A stretch of 15,795 nucleotides of DNA, from positions 1 to 15,795 of the forward strand of contig JAGLPV010000041.1 in NCBI GenBank assembly GCA_023137195.1, given 5' to 3'. The translations under genes were made by a program, and so were the position numbers. The notes below the pieces were generated by a model. That model ran no database searches and had not been told where the DNA came from. It saw only the letters and a list, made by a program, of their open reading frames with translations. This document shows positions 1,320 through 15,703 of the stretch, in pieces. Position 1 is the first letter of the stretch, and each line of letters opens with the position of its first letter. The stretch comes from Candidatus Aenigmatarchaeota archaeon (GTDB lineage: Archaea; EX4484-52).

Positions 1320-1341
1320 AAGACTATAGATTTTAATTAAT

Positions 1342-1349
1342 TTTATAAA
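1342..1349 (-). promoter_or_regulatory. Putative archaeal TATA box for topA (probably leaderless mRNA)
   Basis: TTTATAAA ends 22 nt upstream of the topA ATG with no Shine-Dalgarno in between. The same motif and spacing occur upstream of map. Confidence 0.55.
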
Positions 1350-1415
1350 TATAAATGGTTTATATAACTATAAGAATAAATAATTTATTGGTATAAAATA
1401 TAAAAGGTTATTATT

Positions 1416-8420: not shown

Positions 8421-9653
8421 TTATTTTCTCCTCCCCTCCAACTCATTTATTACATCCTCAATTGCAATATTTTTCTTTGCCATAAGCACAAGAATAAAAT
8501 ATGTCAAATCTGCGATTTCCCAGATTAAATTATCCTTGTCTGTATAATTCAAAACCTCTCCAGACTCTTCCTTAATTTTCTCCTTTATTGATTTTTCATC
8601 CCTTGACACAAGCGAAGTATAAGAGCCCTTTCTGGGTTTATTAACCCTGTCCTTAATACAACCATAGAGTTCCTTTAAATTAAATTCTCTATTCTCCGCT
8701 CCAAAACAGGAATAACTTCCCTTGTGGCATGCAACACCAGATTGCCTGACTCTGAACAACAAAGTGTCTTTATCGCAGTCATATTTTACATTGAGTAATT
8801 GTTGCGTGTTGCCTGAGGTCTCTCCTTTTCTCCATAATTGCTTTCTTGATCTGCTGTAATAAATTCCTTTTTGCTTCTTCAATGCCTGTTTTAATGATTC
8901 CCTGGAAGAGTAAGCAAGCATCAAAACCTGATTCGCCTCATCCTGAACAATTGTCGGAATCAGACCATTGGTTTTATTAAAATCAAGAAGCCCGGCAAAA
9001 CATTCTGTCAAATCCAGCTTGCCTGTATATAGTGCCATTCCTATCTGGCAGTCTACATCTATTTTGTCAAGCTCTTTAATCTGTTCCAGGGAACTTATTC
9101 CTCCGGCAGCAATCAACCTGTTTTTTGTCATTTTCCTTATCTGTTTGATTTTTTCCAAATCAATGCCCTGCATTCTGCCTTCTGATTCTATAAGAGTGTA
9201 TAAAAAACCACAGCAGTAATCTTTCAATTCAGCTACTGTTTCCTGCGGCGTCTTGTTTGTCTTATTTTTCCAGCCTTCATTCACGACAAATCCTTCTTTA
9301 CTGTCAATTGCAACTATCAATCTGTCTTTTGGCAATTGCATTAAAAAATCCCTGTTTGCTTTTGTCCCGATAATTATTTTTTTGGCTCCGCTTTTCAATA
9401 ATTCCTCTGCTTTTTGTTTTGTCCTGATTCCTCCGCCGACATTGCACTTGGTGATTTTGCATATTTTCTTAATTAATTCTGTATTGTCTTTACATTTGTT
9501 CATTGCCGCATCAAGATCAATTACAGCAACATCCCCGTAAACTCCAAATCTTCTTGCCAGTTCCAGCACATCCTCTCTTTCGAGTATTTTCTTCTTTCCG
9601 CCGACAAGTTGAACTGCTTTGCCATCTATTAAATCGATGCTTGGGATTATCAT
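8421..9653 (-). CDS. hisAIE: Trifunctional HisA-HisI-HisE fusion (ProFAR isomerase, PR-AMP cyclohydrolase, PR-ATP pyrophosphatase)
   Basis: The first ~220 aa form the HisA barrel (IIPSIDL, DLDAA, VGGGIR, AAGGI). HisI follows ([35 protein letters not shown]), then HisE (SYT, EESGEV, EIADL). SD GGAGGT upstream. Confidence 0.93.
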
Positions 9654-10405
9654 AGTCTTACCTCCATATTATTTTTTGCCAGGTATTCTTTTACCTGACT
9701 TACTGAAAATTTCCCGTAATGAAAAATAGATGCCGCCAGCATTGCATCTGCGCATCCATATTCAAATATATCGGATATGGACTTCAAATCTCCTGCTCCA
9801 CCCGATGCAATGACAGGAATATTTATGCTTTCTGAAATGATTTTTGTCAACCCGATGTCAAACCCTTTTTTTGTCCCGTCCCGGTCCATTGAAGTAAGAA
9901 GGATTTCCCCCGCACCAAACTGCTGAACTTTTTTCGCCCATTCAATTGCATCAATTCGGGTATCTGTCCTGCCACCATTAATAAACACATTCCATGAATT
10001 TTGAGTTTTTTTTGCGTCAATTGCAACAACAATGCACTGGGAGCCAAATTTCGAACTTGCCTGTTTTATGATGCCCGGGTTTTTGATTGCCGCAGTATTT
10101 ACTGAAATTTTGTCTGCCCCGCAAAACAATAGTTTCTGCATATCTTCAACTGTACTGATTCCCCCTCCGACAGTAAATGGAATAAACAACTGTCTTGAAA
10201 CATTTCTGACAATGTCATAGATTGTTTTTCTTTCTTCAACCGAGGCGGTAATGTCCAGAAAGACCAGTTCATCTGCTCCTTCTTCATTGTATTTTTTCGC
10301 CAGCTCCACGGGGTCTCCCGCATCTCTCAAATTGACAAAATTCGTGCCTTTGACAACCCTGCCATTTTTCACATCAAGACAGGGAACAATTCTTTTGGTC
10401 AACAT
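9650..10405 (-). CDS. hisF: Imidazole glycerol phosphate synthase, cyclase subunit
   Basis: True start [12 protein letters not shown] at ATG 10405 (SD GGAGGTGG). Motifs [29 protein letters not shown] and AASIFH. Confidence 0.97.
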
Positions 10406-10983
10406 TCCAACCACCTCCTTAATATATCCAATCCAAATTCGCCGCTTTTTTCCGGGTGAAATTGTGTTGCTGTGATGTTTTTGCACTGCACTGCGCTTGT
10501 AAATTCAAGATAATAATCTGTCTTCGTCGCAATTATATCTGTGTTTTTTGGAACAATATAAAATGAATTCACAAAATAAACAAATCCTTCTCTAAAAAAT
10601 TCATTTTGATTTGCCGGTCTGATTTTATTCCATCCAATTTGGGGAACTTTTCCCTGCCTGAATTTCACGACTTCTCCTTCAAAAAGTCCAAGACCTTTTA
10701 CGCCAGGACTTTCCTCACTCCTTTCAAAAAGAACCTGAAGACCCAGACAAATGCCAAAAAAGGGTTTGCCGGAATCAATAAACTTCTTGATTGGTTCAAT
10801 TAGTTTTTGTTTCTTTAGATTGTCCATTATCTCTCCAAATGCCCCGACACCAGGCAGAATCAATTTATCTGCTTCTTTTATCATGTCTGGATTTTCGGTT
10901 ATTGTATATTCGTATCCTAAATATTCAAGAGCATTGGTTATACTGCCTATGTTTCCTGCCCCGTAATTAATTATGTATATCAT
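10399..10983 (-). CDS. hisH: Imidazole glycerol phosphate synthase, glutaminase subunit
   Basis: Motifs [17 protein letters not shown] (catalytic Cys) and QFHPEKS. SD GGAGTGA. Confidence 0.97.
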
Positions 10984-11571
10984 TTAAATCACTCCTTTTG
11001 TAGTTGGCATCTCTTTTATTCTCCTTTTATCTTTTGAACATGCCATATTCATTGATCTGGCAAATGCCTTGAATATTGCCTCGATTTTGTGGTGGTCGCT
11101 CCTGCCGTAAGGCATCCTGACCACAAGATTTGCCCCGAGATTTGTCGCAAATGCCTGGAAAAAATCCTCCAATAAGTCTGTATCAAAGTCGCCGCAGAAT
11201 CGCCTCTTGAATTCAGCATCATACTGCAAATATGGTCTGCCTCCAATATCAACAGCAACAACAGCCAATGCCTCATCCATCGGATACACAAAATAACCCG
11301 CCCTGTTAATACCTCTTTTGTCCCCTAATGCTTTTTTAAATGCTTCTCCCAGCACAATTCCGCAATCCTCTATTGTGTGGTGCTGGTCTGTTTCCAAATC
11401 GCCTTTGATTGTCATACTAATATCAAAAAGCCCGTGCTTTGAAAATGTCTCCAACATGTGTCCGAAAAATCCAACAGGAGATTCAATCCCGTATGTTCCC
11501 GAACCGTCAATATTCACGCTCAGTGAAATATCTGTCTCATTTGTCTTTCTTTTAATTTTTGCTGTTCTCAT
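10984..11571 (-). CDS. hisB: Imidazoleglycerol-phosphate dehydratase (monofunctional)
   Basis: Motifs RKTNET, FFGHML, DQHHTIED, PMDEAL, DHHKIEA and PTTKG. SD GGAGG. Confidence 0.97.
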   Translation of the reverse strand: MRTAKIKRKTNETDISLSVNIDGSGTYGIESPVGFFGHMLETFSKHGLFDISMTIKGDLETDQHHTIEDCGIVLGEAFKKALGDKRGINRAGYFVYPMDEALAVVAVDIGGRPYLQYDAEFKRRFCGDFDTDLLEDFFQAFATNLGANLVVRMPYGRSDHHKIEAIFKAFARSMNMACSKDKRRIKEMPTTKGVI

Positions 11572-13286
11572 TCTAAAACCTCCTTTATCTCATTTATATC
11601 ATTTAATACTTGTTTTGCCCCGTATTTGAGCATCCTGTTTTTTAATTTTCCTGACTTTTCCTGCGGCGGCAGAACTCCGACAGGAGTTATGTTTGCATCA
11701 ATTGCCGCCTTCATGTCATCTATTGTGTCGCCAAAATAAATCACATCTTCTGATTCATATTTTTCCATGATTTTAAACAGCCCTTGCGGGTTTGGCTTGG
11801 CTTTTGAGACATCTTCCATTGCAACTATCCTGTCAAAATAACCGAACACACCATTTATTTCCAATGAAAAAACAGCTTCTTCTTTCGGTCTTCCTGTAAA
11901 TATGGCAAGTTTATATTTTGATGATAATTTTTTTAGAATCTCTTTTTCCAAAAGCCATTTTTCATTATTTCTTAGACCGCCCAGATATAACTCCTGGAAT
12001 TTATCTATTATTTTGCTCTTTTTCACATCGAGTCCCCTGCTCTTTATTATTGCCTCTGTCAAGTCCCAGTCGTTGTTATATCCTCCTCTGTTCTTGAAAT
12101 CCTGAATCTTATTTTCTGAAACTTCCCTACCTAAAAAAAATTCTGCTGTTTGTTTTATGGCTTGTCTGTATGATTTTGAGACATCAATCAAAACCCCGTC
12201 AATATCAAAAATCAATAGCGGCTTTTCCTGGTCTTTTATTTCTTTCAATGCCTCTATCAACTGCTGTGTCTGTTTGGCAGTTCCGACTGTTATTCTAAAA
12301 ACTCCTTCCAGCAACGGGTCTTTACTCCTGTCTCTTACCAATATTCCTTTTTTCTTTAATTGTCCGCAATAATCAGAACACCTTTTGCCAACATCAACCA
12401 ACAGAAAATTTGCATCTGATTCATAGTATTTTATTTTCTCTTTCTTCAATTCAGAATATATCCTTGTTTTATTCTCATTCACAGTTTTTACATAGTTTTT
12501 GACATACTCGTAATCGTCCAATGCTACGGATACACAGGCTGTGGCAATGCCGTTGACACTGTATGGAGAAATCACTTTTCTCATGGTTTTTATATTCTCT
12601 TTGTTTGAAACAATATAGCCGATTCTTAGATTTGCCATGCCAAATGCCTTTGAGAAGGTCTGAAGCACAACAAGATTATCAAATTCTTCAATTAAATCAA
12701 TTGATGATTCATTGAAAAAAGGATAGTATGCCTCATCAACAAGCACCAGCGCATCATTTTGCTTTGCTTTGTTCAGGATTTCAATAAGTTCTTGTCTATT
12801 TACAGATGTGCCTGTTGGATTATTTGGATTTACTATCACCACAATCTTTGTTTTTGGGTTAATTTCCTCCAATACTTTTCCTGTCGGAAAACTCAAATCC
12901 TTATTGTAAAAAACCTCTTTGATTTTTGCTTCATTCAACTGGGCATAGAATCCAAACATGGCGAAAGTCGGCACAGGAATAATGATTTCATCTATGCCTC
13001 TTTCAACATAAGTCTCGGTTATCGTTTTTATTGCTTCATCCGTCCCGTTTGTATACATCACCTGACTTGAATCGATTTTCAGAAAATCAGCAAGTTTTTT
13101 TATGGATTCATCATATTGGGGATACGTGCTTATATTTCCTGCTGTTATTTCTCTTAATTTTTCAATGACCCTTGGCGAACAGCCAATTGTATTTTCATTG
13201 AAATCCAGTCTTAGATAACCTTCTCTGCCTTCTGTCGGAGGAGAATAAGAGGACATTTCCATTACAGCTTTTTTTGGTCTTATCAT
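11568..13286 (-). CDS. hisC: Histidinol-phosphate aminotransferase fused to a C-terminal HAD phosphatase (probable histidinol-phosphatase)
   Basis: HisC motifs LDFNEN, NPNNPTG, DEAY and TFSKAFG...RIGY (PLP Lys). From about 12220 a HAD domain: FDIDGV, FTGRP, KPNP, GDTIDD. Start ATG 13286 after AAAGGTGA; the ORF-track GTG start lies inside the SD. Confidence 0.94.
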   Translation of the reverse strand: MIRPKKAVMEMSSYSPPTEGREGYLRLDFNENTIGCSPRVIEKLREITAGNISTYPQYDESIKKLADFLKIDSSQVMYTNGTDEAIKTITETYVERGIDEIIIPVPTFAMFGFYAQLNEAKIKEVFYNKDLSFPTGKVLEEINPKTKIVVIVNPNNPTGTSVNRQELIEILNKAKQNDALVLVDEAYYPFFNESSIDLIEEFDNLVVLQTFSKAFGMANLRIGYIVSNKENIKTMRKVISPYSVNGIATACVSVALDDYEYVKNYVKTVNENKTRIYSELKKEKIKYYESDANFLLVDVGKRCSDYCGQLKKKGILVRDRSKDPLLEGVFRITVGTAKQTQQLIEALKEIKDQEKPLLIFDIDGVLIDVSKSYRQAIKQTAEFFLGREVSENKIQDFKNRGGYNNDWDLTEAIIKSRGLDVKKSKIIDKFQELYLGGLRNNEKWLLEKEILKKLSSKYKLAIFTGRPKEEAVFSLEINGVFGYFDRIVAMEDVSKAKPNPQGLFKIMEKYESEDVIYFGDTIDDMKAAIDANITPVGVLPPQEKSGKLKNRMLKYGAKQVLNDINEIKEVLE

Positions 13287-13287
13287 C

Positions 13288-14538
13288 TTATTCACCTTTT
13301 AATCTTATTGATGCGGCTCTCTTGTGTGCATCCAGCCCTTCAATTTCTGCGAATTTTGCTGAAATTTTTACTAATTCATCAAGACTGTTTTTCCCTGCTT
13401 TCTGATAAGTCTGTATCTTCACAAAGTCTTTTACACAAAGACCACCTGTATATCTTGCGGCTTTGCTTGTCGGCAGAATGTGGTTTGTGCCCGTGCAATA
13501 ATCTCCAAATACCTCTGCACTATTCTGCCCAATAAACAGGCTCCCGTAATTCTTTAATTTGTCGATTAGTTTATCCTGCTCTTTAACCTGAATTTCCAAG
13601 TGTTCCGGCGCATACTTATTTGCGATTTTTACTGCATCGTCCAAATCTTCAACCAAGATGATTTTGCTGTTTTTTACAGATTCTTCAATGATTTGTTTTG
13701 TTGTTAATTTCTCTTTTTGACAGATTAATTCATCATTGACCTGTCCTGCAATTTTTGAGGAAGTTGCAATTAAATTTGCCCTTGCGTCTGTATCGTGCTC
13801 TAATTGAGCGAGCAAATCTGCTGCAATGAATTTTGGATTTGCAGATTCATCGGCAATTATCATCACTTCGCTCGGACCTGCAATGAAATCAATCCCGACT
13901 GTTCCATAAACCTGTTTTTTTGCTGCGCTGACATATTTATTTCCCGGACCCACAATTTTGTCTACTTTAGGAATGTCTCGCGTTCCAAAAGCAAGAGCGG
14001 CTATTGCCTGAACTCCCCCAATATTGAATATCCTATCAGCCCCTGCTAAATCGCACGCAACAATAGTTATTGCCTGAATTTTAGGAGAACACGCAATTAT
14101 ACTTTCAACCCCGGCAACTTTGGCAGGAATTATTGACATCAACGCAGAAGAAGGAAGAGGAAATCTTCCTCCAGGAATGTAGCACCCTACTGTCTCTAAA
14201 GGTATTATTTTTTGCCCCAGCACAATGCCGTTCCTTTCTGCCTCAAAATCCACGAAATTGCTCATCTGTTTTTGCGCAAAAAATTCAATATTTTCAATCG
14301 CTTTTTTCAAGGTCAGAATTGTCTTTGAATCTGTCTTTTCATATGCCTCCCGTATCTGTTTTGGAGTTATTGAAAAATCATCCAAATCCAGATTATCAAA
14401 TTTTTTTGCGTATTTTATGAGTGCTGTATCGCTGTTTGCCTTTACATCCGAAATAATTTCTTCAACTATTTTTATGTCCTCTGTGGACTCGCAACTGAAA
14501 AAATCATCAGTCAGGTCTTTATATCTTATAATTTCCAT
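13288..14538 (-). CDS. hisD: Histidinol dehydrogenase
   Basis: Motifs GCYIPGG, GGVQAIAALAFG, GPGNKYV, AGPSE, QLEHD, APEHL, GDY..GTNHILPT and EGLDAH. Start ATG 14538 after GAAGTGA. Confidence 0.97.
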   Translation of the reverse strand: MEIIRYKDLTDDFFSCESTEDIKIVEEIISDVKANSDTALIKYAKKFDNLDLDDFSITPKQIREAYEKTDSKTILTLKKAIENIEFFAQKQMSNFVDFEAERNGIVLGQKIIPLETVGCYIPGGRFPLPSSALMSIIPAKVAGVESIIACSPKIQAITIVACDLAGADRIFNIGGVQAIAALAFGTRDIPKVDKIVGPGNKYVSAAKKQVYGTVGIDFIAGPSEVMIIADESANPKFIAADLLAQLEHDTDARANLIATSSKIAGQVNDELICQKEKLTTKQIIEESVKNSKIILVEDLDDAVKIANKYAPEHLEIQVKEQDKLIDKLKNYGSLFIGQNSAEVFGDYCTGTNHILPTSKAARYTGGLCVKDFVKIQTYQKAGKNSLDELVKISAKFAEIEGLDAHKRAASIRLKGE

Positions 14539-14543
14539 TTTAA

Positions 14544-15419
14544 TCACTTCACTACTTTTTCCAGCTTATATTCTAAGATGTCTGTTGCCCCCTCCTGTAA
14601 TAATTCCGGAATCAATTCCTTTACTTCGTCTCTTTTTACTGCAATTTTGACTGCATAACCACGCCCTCCATACAATTTAGAAACTGTGGGTGATTTCATG
14701 CACGGAAGAGTTTCCAGAAGTTCTTTTAATTTAGCTTCGGAGATATTCATCTCAATCAAAACTCTTTTTCTTGCCTCCAGCACGCTTTTTATCAGCATCG
14801 TAATATTTTTTATTTTTCCCTGCTTCCAGTTATCTTTCATGGCATCGATATTGGCAATAAACCTTGTTGAAGAAGACATTACTGTTTCCACTATTTTTAG
14901 ATTATTGTCCTTTAATGTATTTCCTGTGGATACGTTGTCAACAATCATATCTGCATCCTCCGGTGGATAGCACTCTGTCGCCCCGTATGTTTTTATGTAT
15001 TCATAGTTGATTCCTTTTTGTTCCAGATATTTTTTCACTATTCTCTCGTATTCTGATGCAACTCTTATTTTTCTCTTTATCAATTTGCTAAAATCGTATC
15101 CTACAGGAACAGCAGAGACTATCCTTACTTTATCCAGTTCAAGGTCAAGCAATTCCTCAACTTTCGCATCTTGTTCAATTATCCAATCCAGACCGCAGAA
15201 TCCAATATCCTGAGAACCCAGTTCCACTAATTTAGAGATTATCTGGGGCTTTAGAAGTTTCACTTCCAGTTCGCTGTCATTTATGAAGGGACGGTAATTT
15301 CTGCCGTTTTGCGATATTTTCAAACCAATATCGTCTAATAGTTTAACTACGCCTTTAGATAATCTTCCCTTTGGAATGGCAAGTTTTAATTTTCTTTGTT
15401 GTTTTTTAGAAATGGCTAT
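14544..15419 (-). CDS. hisG: ATP phosphoribosyltransferase, long form with C-terminal regulatory domain; no in-frame canonical start, probably entered by +1 frameshift from the leader ORF
   Basis: The frame continues upstream of the ORF-track TTG (15323) as IAISKKQQRKLKLAIPKGRLSKGVVKLLDDIGL, which includes the conserved AIPKGRL motif. Also DIGFCGLD, GATE.YPP..AD.IVD.VSTG.TL and LP.MKSPTV. No ATG, GTG or TTG lies between the upstream in-frame TGA (15504-15506) and 15323. Confidence 0.93.
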   Translation of the reverse strand: MAISKKQQRKLKLAIPKGRLSKGVVKLLDDIGLKISQNGRNYRPFINDSELEVKLLKPQIISKLVELGSQDIGFCGLDWIIEQDAKVEELLDLELDKVRIVSAVPVGYDFSKLIKRKIRVASEYERIVKKYLEQKGINYEYIKTYGATECYPPEDADMIVDNVSTGNTLKDNNLKIVETVMSSSTRFIANIDAMKDNWKQGKIKNITMLIKSVLEARKRVLIEMNISEAKLKELLETLPCMKSPTVSKLYGGRGYAVKIAVKRDEVKELIPELLQEGATDILEYKLEKVVK

Positions 15420-15507
15420 GGGGTGAACATGAACTAGTATCCTGTCTTCCGTATAAAGACTCTTGCATGCTTTTGTCCATTGTATTTGTATTATTTTTTG
15501 TGTTCAT
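15406..15507 (-). CDS. 33-aa his leader ORF (MNTKNNTNTMDKSMQESLYGRQDTSSCSPHSHF), putative frameshift or sensor leader
   Basis: ATG 15507 is preceded by AAAGGCGA plus 5 nt, the same geometry as AAAGGTGA before hisC. The ORF ends CCC CAT AGC CAT TTC TAA and overlaps the hisG frame, which is +1 relative to it. Confidence 0.7.
   Translation of the reverse strand: MNTKNNTNTMDKSMQESLYGRQDTSSCSPHSHF
15418..15423 (-). promoter_or_regulatory. Candidate +1 ribosomal frameshift site CCC-CAT
   Basis: P-site Pro CCC can re-pair perfectly on the +1 CCC while the A-site codon is His CAT. The shift yields the hisG frame (CCC ATA GCC ATT TCT AAA). Confidence 0.55.
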
Positions 15508-15539
15508 ATATATCGCCTTTTAATGGTATTAGTAGATAA

Positions 15540-15556
15540 TTTTTTTAAGCTTTTTG
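15540..15556. promoter_or_regulatory. Putative divergent promoter region for the his operon and tRNA-Met
   Basis: The minus strand reads CAAAAAG-CTTAAAAA (BRE/TATA-like), about 35 nt above the leader ATG. The plus strand has TTTAAG about 25 nt above the tRNA 5' end. Confidence 0.4.
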
Positions 15557-15573
15557 TATTTTAAGTCATATAT

Positions 15574-15703
15574 GCTGAGGTGGCTCAGTTGGTTAGAGCG
15601 CCAGACTCATAAGTTCAGTATGAGTTTTGACTCTTTTGTTGCAAAAGGGGATGATAAGAACTAAGATATCTGGAGGTCGCGGGTCCGAGCCCCGCCCTCG
15701 GCA
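15574..15703 (+). tRNA. trnM: tRNA-Met (elongator, anticodon CAT) with a 56-nt intron at canonical position 37/38 (15612-15667); CCA not encoded
   Basis: Acceptor GCTGAGG/CCTCGGC-A, D arm GCTC/GAGC, anticodon stem CCAGA/TCTGG with loop CTCATA^A, T arm GCGGG/CCCGC. A bulge-helix-bulge motif forms: CTCA/TAAG core with one C.A mismatch, outer helix GTTC/GAAC. G1-C72 argues against initiator; a GC-T-GAGG rather than GGGCC start favours eMet over Ile2. Confidence 0.92.
15612..15667 (+). ncRNA. tRNA intron with a box C/D-like K-turn and a guide for 2'-O-methylation of C34
   Basis: Guide TATGAGTT (15619-15626) is complementary to the anticodon arm. It is followed by box D-like TTGA (15627-15630), stem CTCTTTTG/CAAAAGGG and box C-like ATGATAA (15651-15657). 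The D+5 nucleotide pairs with C34. Confidence 0.7.

Follow-up and report, generated by a model that had tools for sequence, protein, structure and literature searches.

How is the first gene of a histidine operon translated when its reading frame contains no start codon? The question is raised by the window analyzed here, an entire 15.8-kb contig (15,795 nucleotides) from a metagenome-assembled genome (MAG; 1.42 Mb, 85% complete) of a Candidatus Aenigmatarchaeota archaeon, whose minus strand carries a complete his operon headed by hisG, with gene identities assigned using Pfam. The answer favored here, with moderate confidence and from sequence comparison, is that hisG would be made via a programmed +1 ribosomal frameshift at CCC_CAU, close to the end of a short leader open reading frame (ORF), and that this shift would be favored when His-tRNA is scarce. 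The more general proposition, that a conserved +1 recoding event precedes hisG, is well supported by comparison of this locus with its relatives.

A hisG gene without a start codon

The body of hisG (positions 14544 to 15389, minus strand) encodes a long-form ATP phosphoribosyltransferase of 281 codons plus a stop codon and contains no histidine. The protein matches the Pfam domains HisG (PF01634; 1.3e-42) and HisG_C (PF08029; 1.5e-22) and aligns with the structure 2vd3 over residues 2 to 280, comprising full-length catalytic and C-terminal regulatory domains. The hisG frame is open from 15503 down to the stop codon at 14546 to 14544 and includes the sequence LVHVHPIAISKKQQRKLKLAIPKGRL. As the initial annotation of this locus had claimed, no ATG, GTG, or TTG precedes the HisG N terminus in frame: the 38 open codons upstream contain none of these and no Shine-Dalgarno (SD) sequence, and the first such codon is the TTG at 15323, 22 codons past the conserved LKLAIPKG. 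This TTG (15321 to 15323, minus strand) is the start used by gene callers, which gives a 259-amino-acid product minus the first 22 conserved residues, and the database protein P0002 (259 amino acids, 92% coverage) begins there. All 19 HisG sequences from the PDB (E ≤ 1e-10) align starting at query residue 1 to 3, and LKLAIPKG is therefore taken to be the true N-terminal strand; a start at TTG 15323 was rejected because it would cut off 22 residues that align to this strand. An ordinary start lies no more than 12 codons from the HisG motif in 79 of 80 species-representative loci, the exception being a MAG of the same genus (G002). An ordinary start was also found in all but five of 55 metagenome loci, the set that remained of 60 after L043, L060, L066, L067, and L069, where the match falls short of the N terminus, had been left out.

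Initiation signals are instead found on an overlapping ORF, relative to which hisG is in the +1 frame. This leader of 33 codons (15406 to 15507, minus strand; MNTKNNTNTMDKSMQESLYGRQDTSSCSPHSHF followed by a stop) is in the frame one base behind hisG and has both an ATG and an SD-like sequence, AAAGGCGA (15513 to 15520, minus strand), located 5 nt (TATAT) before the ATG. The geometry is that of the six downstream his cistrons, all of which have an SD sequence 5 to 7 nt ahead of ATG, including hisC (AAAGGTGA-ATAAG-ATG) and hisH (AGGAGTGA-TTTAA-ATG). The leader ends TCA CCC CAT AGC CAT TTC TAA and contains no His codons besides these two. Both the operon-type initiation signal and this ending had been described in the initial annotation, and both were confirmed.

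The proposed shift site, CCC_CAT_A (15417 to 15423, minus strand), begins with a CCC codon at 15423 to 15421 that could re-pair one base farther on as CCC at 15422 to 15420, so that the ribosome would read ATA (15419 to 15417) in place of CAT (15420 to 15418). Reading CCCC as one step gives MNTKNNTNTMDKSMQESLYGRQDTSSCSP-IAISKKQQRK-LKLAIPKG, a predicted leader-HisG fusion of 29 + 10 + 281 = 320 residues without histidine, the length and composition originally given for it. The linker IAISKKQQRK (15390 to 15419, minus strand) would be read in the hisG frame only, after the shift; it shares nucleotides with the final four codons of the leader and with its TAA, is free of stops in the hisG frame, and is poorly conserved. 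CCC_CAY is the only codon pair with perfect +1 re-pairing ahead of a His codon. CCC is the rarest Pro codon in 831 long ORFs of this genome (13%), and CCC_CAY accounts for 32 of the approximately 366,000 codon pairs that these ORFs contain, corresponding to a post hoc expectation of about 0.003 per 33-codon ORF.

Immediately upstream of the CCC, the hisG frame of the window reads GTT CAT GTT CAC (Val-His-Val-His; 15425 to 15436, minus strand), a stretch that would be untranslated under the frameshift model. In both the window and G002, the hexamer GTTCAT belongs to the hisG frame, whereas the loci of the L014, L016, and L170 types described below carry it in the frame of the leader; the GTT-CAY of the window could be left over from an earlier shift site or be due to chance. 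A mini-ORF from the ATG at 15430 (MFTP and a stop) was considered and rejected, as G002 has ATA at this position.

Two further contigs cover the junction. X4, from a second sample of the same study, spans 15248 to 15600 with one substitution and no gaps, and X5, from a brine metagenome of another study, spans 15200 to 15600 with 26 substitutions and no gaps, which answers the concern, raised in the initial annotation, that an indel might separate the two frames. The leader carries one of these substitutions in X4 and three in X5, with no indel, and its ATG, frame, CCC, and first CAT are left intact. Of the codons changed in the hisG frame of X5, 11 of 15 are synonymous. In the linker, the Ile codon ATT is replaced by AAT (Asn) in X4 and by ACT (Thr) in X5.

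The congeneric MAG G002 comes from a different habitat and encodes a HisG that is 76% identical to that of the window, with the same layout and again no canonical hisG start. Its leader opens with AAAGGTGA-ATAAT-ATG, runs for 32 codons, and ends TGT CCC CAT AGT TAT TTT TAA, with hisG one base ahead. The sequence CCCCATAG is unchanged between the window and G002, whereas the first two thirds of the leader diverge, which is the pattern of conservation that had been anticipated for a functional out-of-frame leader. The two differ by one indel each in the leader (3 nt) and the linker (6 nt), the linker being two codons shorter in G002, and the frames are kept. CCC_CAT is the sole site of perfect +1 re-pairing in the P site within the shift window of G002 and the sole such site shared with the window. 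The shift site CCC_CAT_A is identical in all four genus sequences (window/X1, X4, X5, and G002), as is the frame relation. The initial annotation had noted two leader His codons; the first CAT is conserved, but the second is not, being CAC in X5, CAA (Gln) in X4, and TAT in G002.

Between the window and G002, the ratio of nonsynonymous to synonymous substitution rates (dN/dS) in hisG is 0.12 (dS of 1.39; 281 codons), and neither gene has an internal stop; the low ratio indicates that hisG has been kept working since the two split. An assembly or sequencing indel, or a gene decaying into a pseudogene, would fit a source MAG that is 85% complete and gene calls that yield a truncated protein. This explanation was nevertheless rejected as very improbable given the gap-free junction in contigs from sequencing runs of two studies, the same frames in a MAG from another habitat, the purifying selection on hisG, and the complete and intact his operon downstream.

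Start-less hisG in other lineages

The five metagenome loci without an ordinary start represent three sequences (L014, L017 = L019, and L028 = L064), two of which were each found in two assemblies. These loci belong to a GC-richer group whose HisG proteins are 55 to 57% identical to that of the window, and no hisG start occurs in the 32 to 44 open codons of L014, L017, and L028. Each group member has a leader with an SD sequence and an ATG (e.g., MDNFKQTFSGKGGPVHLCTGKAAQA and a stop), one base behind hisG, and the leader has a single His codon, preceded by GTT (GTT-CAT), inside the invariant block GGCGGTCCAGTTCATCTC. Codon differences were compared pairwise among four group members (L014, L017, L018, and L028). 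Over the 11 codons that follow CAT, synonymous and nonsynonymous differences number 14:18 when the sequence is read in the hisG frame, compared with 6:23 for the leader frame and 1:32 for the remaining one. Because the differences fit the hisG frame far better than the others, the sequence after CAT appears to be translated already in the hisG frame in this group.

A further lineage was added by a search of 401 genomes of the phylum that holds the "Micrarchaeota" relatives. The locus found there, L170, is from a Micrarchaeota-phylum genome and encodes a HisG that is 57% identical to that of the window and 59 to 62% identical to those of the L014 group and L016. Its leader (MKNGCLVHIRIQA and a stop) has the initiation signal AGAGGTG-6nt-ATG and contains GTT CAC. 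In the hisG frame, a TAG stands just before TTC, leaving an open stretch of six codons (TTC ACA TCA GAA TAC AAG) ahead of LKLALPKG, and these six codons include no ATG, GTG, TTG, or AUH (AUA, AUC, or AUU). Judged from its sequence, the only simple route into hisG at L170 would be a +1 move within seven leader codons beginning with GTT CAC.

These loci bear on what is considered the main rival to a frameshift, namely, noncanonical initiation, in which hisG would start at ATA 15419 or ATT 15413 (AUC in the L014 group) and the leader would be a separate upstream ORF. The initial annotation had itself raised such a start. The hisG frame retains both ATA and ATT in the window and G002 and ATA alone in X5; in the L014 group, an SD-like GGCGGT is found 7 nt ahead of ATC. 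Against these points, neither the window nor G002 has a purine-rich SD sequence in the 15 nt that precede ATA or ATT, while the other cistrons all have one, and the ATT varies, as described above for X4 and X5. The open stretch of L170 holds no AUH or other near-cognate start. In addition, a ribosome stalled at the His codon would presumably cover the initiation site, so that regulation would run in the wrong direction. The rival is thus weakened by the comparison and retained as an unlikely one.

Termination at the leader stop (TAA, 15408 to 15406) followed by reinitiation at a nearby noncanonical codon of the hisG frame is an alternative that deserves mention, since every group has its leader stop inside or beside the 5' end of hisG (the stop precedes LKL by 10 codons in the window and is part of CTTAAG in L014, L016, and L170) and stop/start overlaps are common in the his operon. 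It is nonetheless quite unlikely: the window, G002, L014, L017, L028, and L170 have no ATG, GTG, or TTG within reach, and in the L014 group the codons for ISAP, which precede the leader stop in the hisG frame, evolve as coding sequence, which a restart at the stop would not explain.

In each of the three start-less lineages, and also in L016, the codon next to the proposed P-site codon encodes His, even though divergence is saturated. Three observations on the same loci count against a frameshift in the hisG leader. L018, the fourth member of the L014 group, has a TTG at -3 in the hisG frame and keeps the leader, and L016 (60% identity) has the same type of leader with possible GTG starts at -5 and -10; as canonical starts follow the His codon in both, the leader can coexist with ordinary initiation. 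Furthermore, the analogous GTT-CAY sites can re-pair at just two of three positions after a +1 move. GTT provides 19% of the Val codons inside hisG in the L014 group and in L170 and 45% in L016.

Several L016-like proteins (P0008, P0009, P0011, P0013, P0018, and P0028) have N termini of the form (M/V)FIVSG. In the hisG promoter region, a direct repeat, GTGGGA-AAATA-GTGGGA, is found beside a TATA-like box in L014, L017, L018, and L028 (about -135 to -115) and in L170 (about -75). The repeat is common to two lineages whose HisG proteins are only about 60% identical and may be a protein binding site.

A candidate histidine-tRNA-dependent frameshift

In the proposed mechanism, ribosomes would enter the operon through the ATG at 15507 and its ribosome-binding site, the sole pair of such signals at the operon's head, and would read through the 33-codon leader until peptidyl-tRNA-Pro occupies CCC (15423 to 15421) and the His codon CAU stands in the A site. 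If His-tRNA arrives, four more codons would be read, translation would terminate at TAA, and no HisG would be made. If charged tRNA-His is scarce and the A site stays empty, tRNA-Pro would slip by one base onto the overlapping CCC, Ile-tRNA would read AUA, and the ribosome would enter hisG to produce the 320-residue, histidine-free fusion. Output of the first enzyme of the pathway would thus rise as His-tRNA falls, and the downstream his genes would follow by translational coupling. CAT is the commoner His codon in this genome (65%), and a single tRNA-His(GUG) was found; this A site would be slow only under histidine limitation. We infer that the shift occurs, that CCC_CAU is its site, and that His-tRNA is sensed; the initial annotation, which had proposed a histidine-gated frameshift controlling hisG and possibly the entire operon, is upheld as regards the conserved +1 recoding, while histidine sensing and operon-wide gating keep the standing of proposals.

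The regulatory interpretation gives control of the right sign and also matches the composition of HisG itself. None of the 16 HisG proteins of the archaeal (DPANN-type) clade (window, L070, L170, L014, L017, L018, L028, L016, L010, L074, L075, L157, L158, L073, L071, and L072) contains a His residue, whereas the His-bearing proteins in the same list of homologs, mostly distant (about 50 to 57% identity), usually carry two to eight. With no histidine in HisG, the first enzyme of the pathway can be made without the end product of that pathway.

A constitutive, "corrective" slippage would account for the same anatomy without any sensing: a frameshift mutation would have been fixed in the ancestor of the genus, and a low level of +1 slippage at CCC-C would suffice for HisG synthesis. 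Low-level shifting at CCC/U-C occurs in wild-type Escherichia coli according to one study (PMC8129111), translational "correction" of indels in reduced genomes is described in a review (PMC5009743), and the host genome is small (1.4 Mb). Such slippage would leave unexplained the recurrence of a His codon after the P-site codon in three start-less lineages and L016. His makes up just 1.6% of codons in the genome of the window, and the leader keeps a strong SD sequence, an ATG, and a nearby stop. Constitutive slippage is regarded as an improbable account of the locus.

The initial annotation had relied on CCC-N being prone to slip. In support of this, CCC/U-C promotes +1 frameshifting in E. coli, the wild type included, according to PMC8129111, and a slow A site favors +1 shifts according to PMC5009743. 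The genome itself gives a different picture, and a number of its features weigh against the proposed switch. CCC-C is not avoided, as 242 of 1,461 in-frame CCC codons are followed by C (17%, versus 12.7% C at first codon positions). The long ORFs hold 13 CCC-CAT and 19 CCC-CAC pairs, and an in-frame CCC-CAG is found inside hisG itself. Because CCC-C is unavoided both genome-wide and in frame within hisG, the slippery codon alone cannot be a strong shifter. Folding of the shift region is no better than that of shuffled sequences (z of -0.58), and no SD-like stimulator is present 3 nt upstream of the slip codon in the window or G002. With one conserved His codon, versus seven in the E. coli leader, the sensor would be thin, and the only tRNA-Pro found in the 85%-complete MAG has the anticodon UGG. 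Control of the whole operon by coupling, finally, would be conjecture added to the proposed shift.

A small hairpin, GUCUUU-N5-GAAGAC (15444 to 15460, minus strand), lies about 21 nt upstream of the CCC and is kept in G002 with a different loop; none of its six pairs covaries. RNA structure was discarded as a stimulator, nothing significant being found at the window site. Transcriptional slippage was likewise set aside: the only nearby runs are C4 and an A6 that follows the beginning of the leader stop, and the L170 site is without a homopolymer.

The genes downstream of hisG (8421 to 14547, minus strand) comprise hisD, a hisC-phosphatase fusion, hisB, hisH, a HisA/HisF-family gene, and a fusion of a HisA/HisF-family gene with hisI and hisE, and the genes of the operon abut or overlap. 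The hisC fusion (11568 to 13295, minus strand; 575 amino acids) joins histidinol-phosphate aminotransferase to a HAD-family phosphatase that is probably the missing histidinol phosphatase. The last fusion (8421 to 9653, minus strand; 410 amino acids) consists of a HisA/HisF-family barrel, PRA-CH, and PRA-PH. Divergent from the leader and about 65 nt from its ATG is a tRNA gene with a CAT anticodon and an intron of about 55 nt (15574 to 15703, plus strand; 54.3 bits with the Rfam tRNA model). An intron-bearing tRNA of this kind fits a DPANN host. An Rfam scan of the window returned nothing besides this neighboring tRNA, and ARAGORN reported no tRNA anywhere in the window.

Known recoding systems and a wider set of His-bearing leaders

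Known regulatory +1 frameshifting senses release factor 2 and polyamines, and sensing of aminoacyl-tRNA is known from leader-peptide attenuation. What would be new at this locus is the use of a sense codon and its aminoacyl-tRNA as the sensor of a frameshift, the archaeal setting, and the identity of the controlled gene as the first of the pathway for the sensed amino acid. A close parallel is prfB, whose frameshift site has the geometry AGGGGG-UAU-CUU-UGA. In both cases, a short first ORF is followed by a long second ORF in the +1 frame, the P-site tRNA re-pairs while the A site waits, and the length of the wait reflects how much of its own product the pathway supplies. A GGT or GGGGT located 3 nt before the slip codon in L014, L016, L170, L074, and L075 is a further likeness to the prfB geometry. 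In contrast to prfB, the A site here holds a sense codon (His) instead of a stop, aminoacyl-tRNA would be sensed, and the setting is archaeal; moreover, the SD-like element is missing from both the window and G002.

Attenuation at hisL likewise uses a short leader ORF at the head of a his operon, in which His codons report the charging of His-tRNA (PMC8129111). The leader described here has one or two scattered His codons, in contrast to seven in a row in hisL, and overlaps the hisG frame; no terminator/antiterminator fold was detected in the window, and the output would be a change of reading frame and not transcriptional read-through. Hungry-codon +1 frameshifting (Gallant; Ty1 CUU_AGG and Ty3) shares the principle that a slow A-site sense codon drives the shift (PMC5009743), although in the Ty elements the slow codon is constitutively rare. 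The +1 slippage of tRNA-Pro on CCC-C in bacteria, which depends on m1G37 and EF-P, involves the same four-base slippery sequence (PMC8129111); there it is an error that is selected against, whereas here CCC-C is unavoided genome-wide and would be put to use. Starvation-induced hungry-codon shifts that yield functional trans-frame proteins have been sought, but "no examples are known," as stated in a 2016 review (PMC5009743), and a literature search conducted mostly at the level of abstracts returned no description of a hisG frameshift or of frameshifting in an archaeal his leader.

If confirmed, the switch would supply the missing example of a hungry-codon frameshift that produces a needed enzyme, as well as the first amino-acid-responsive control of an archaeal biosynthetic operon that requires no protein regulator. 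It would also offer a compact and portable amino acid sensor for synthetic biology. The "truncated" hisG calls in DPANN genomes would then be intact genes, which bears on histidine synthesis by these supposed symbionts.

The archaeal HisG clade received a Shimodaira-Hasegawa-like approximate likelihood ratio test (SH-aLRT) value of 96 in a quick tree of 74 picked rows (45 metagenome loci, 28 of the 80 genome loci, and the window). Within this clade, short leaders with His codons are found repeatedly ahead of hisG, including hisG genes that start with an ATG of their own. These include GAGCIH(H)TSC-ending leaders in L157 and L158 (about -140 to -77 before hisG), a GCAGCIHCQ-ending leader in L073 (-201 to -138), leaders beginning MERG(L/C)LHQ in L074, L075, and L010 (about -160 to -105), and a leader with GGT-N3-NTT-CAY in L156/L071 (-317 to -251). 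The DNA motif that these leaders share is GGT-N3-NTT-CAY, which corresponds to peptides containing GC[IV]H or G[LC]LH. A strict form, G[GT]T-N3-[ACG]TT-CAY, was found 13 times, in 13 of 143 unique loci, versus four times for the reverse complement, and 11 of the 13 hits are in the archaeal clade, all of them inside ATG-initiated ORFs in frame with the His codon. His is invariably preceded by NTT or CCC, which are minority codons in several lineages; CTT, for example, accounts for 12% of Leu codons within hisG of the L010 group. The GGT or GGGGT element is positioned exactly 3 nt before the slip codon in the five loci compared with prfB above.

It is possible, and put forward tentatively, that the window belongs to a broader and so far undescribed family of DPANN archaeal switches that sense His-tRNA by +1 frameshifting, with direct or coupled routes to hisG. 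The design would consist of a short leader, with SD sequence and ATG or leaderless, that carries GGU-N3-NUU_CAY or CCC_CAU and from which a starved ribosome would enter the +1 frame. In the genus of the window, the L014 group, L170, and L016, the +1 frame would be hisG itself, while in L157/L158 and L010/L074/L075 it would be a long ORF ending on the hisG start codon. In the latter loci, the +1 frame from the His codon is open for 31 to 45 codons, up to a stop that coincides with or adjoins the hisG ATG, an arrangement that could activate hisG by coupling. Such a family would be an archaeal, translation-level counterpart of bacterial attenuation. In a loose control scan, a comparable pattern was seen in 41 of 143 unique loci for the +1 frame versus 28 of 143 for the -1 frame, and the generalization that the +1 frame extends as far as the hisG start therefore lacks statistical security. 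Exceptions to it are L073 and L071/L156, whose +1 frames stop about 75 to 85 nt before the motif.

Individual loci of this clade show further features. The +1 frame of L073 contains four consecutive His codons. In L071, from a Woesearchaeota MAG, a tRNA-His(GTG) gene (1333 to 1404, plus strand) has the same orientation as hisG, precedes the hisG ATG by about 90 nt, and lies downstream of the GGTTGTATTCAT leader, the +1 frame of which is open across the tRNA gene (62 codons). In L072, hisG directly follows the 3' end of a gene whose C terminus contains VVFIGEDEV and, farther on, KLRDM; by eye, this C terminus looks similar to the anticodon-binding domain of a class II tRNA synthetase or to HisZ. 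The lone bacterial member of the clade, the Spirochaetales locus L088, has a classical-looking leader (-256 to -145) that ends in PNHPRHHHHYHSLSH and includes a run of His codons.

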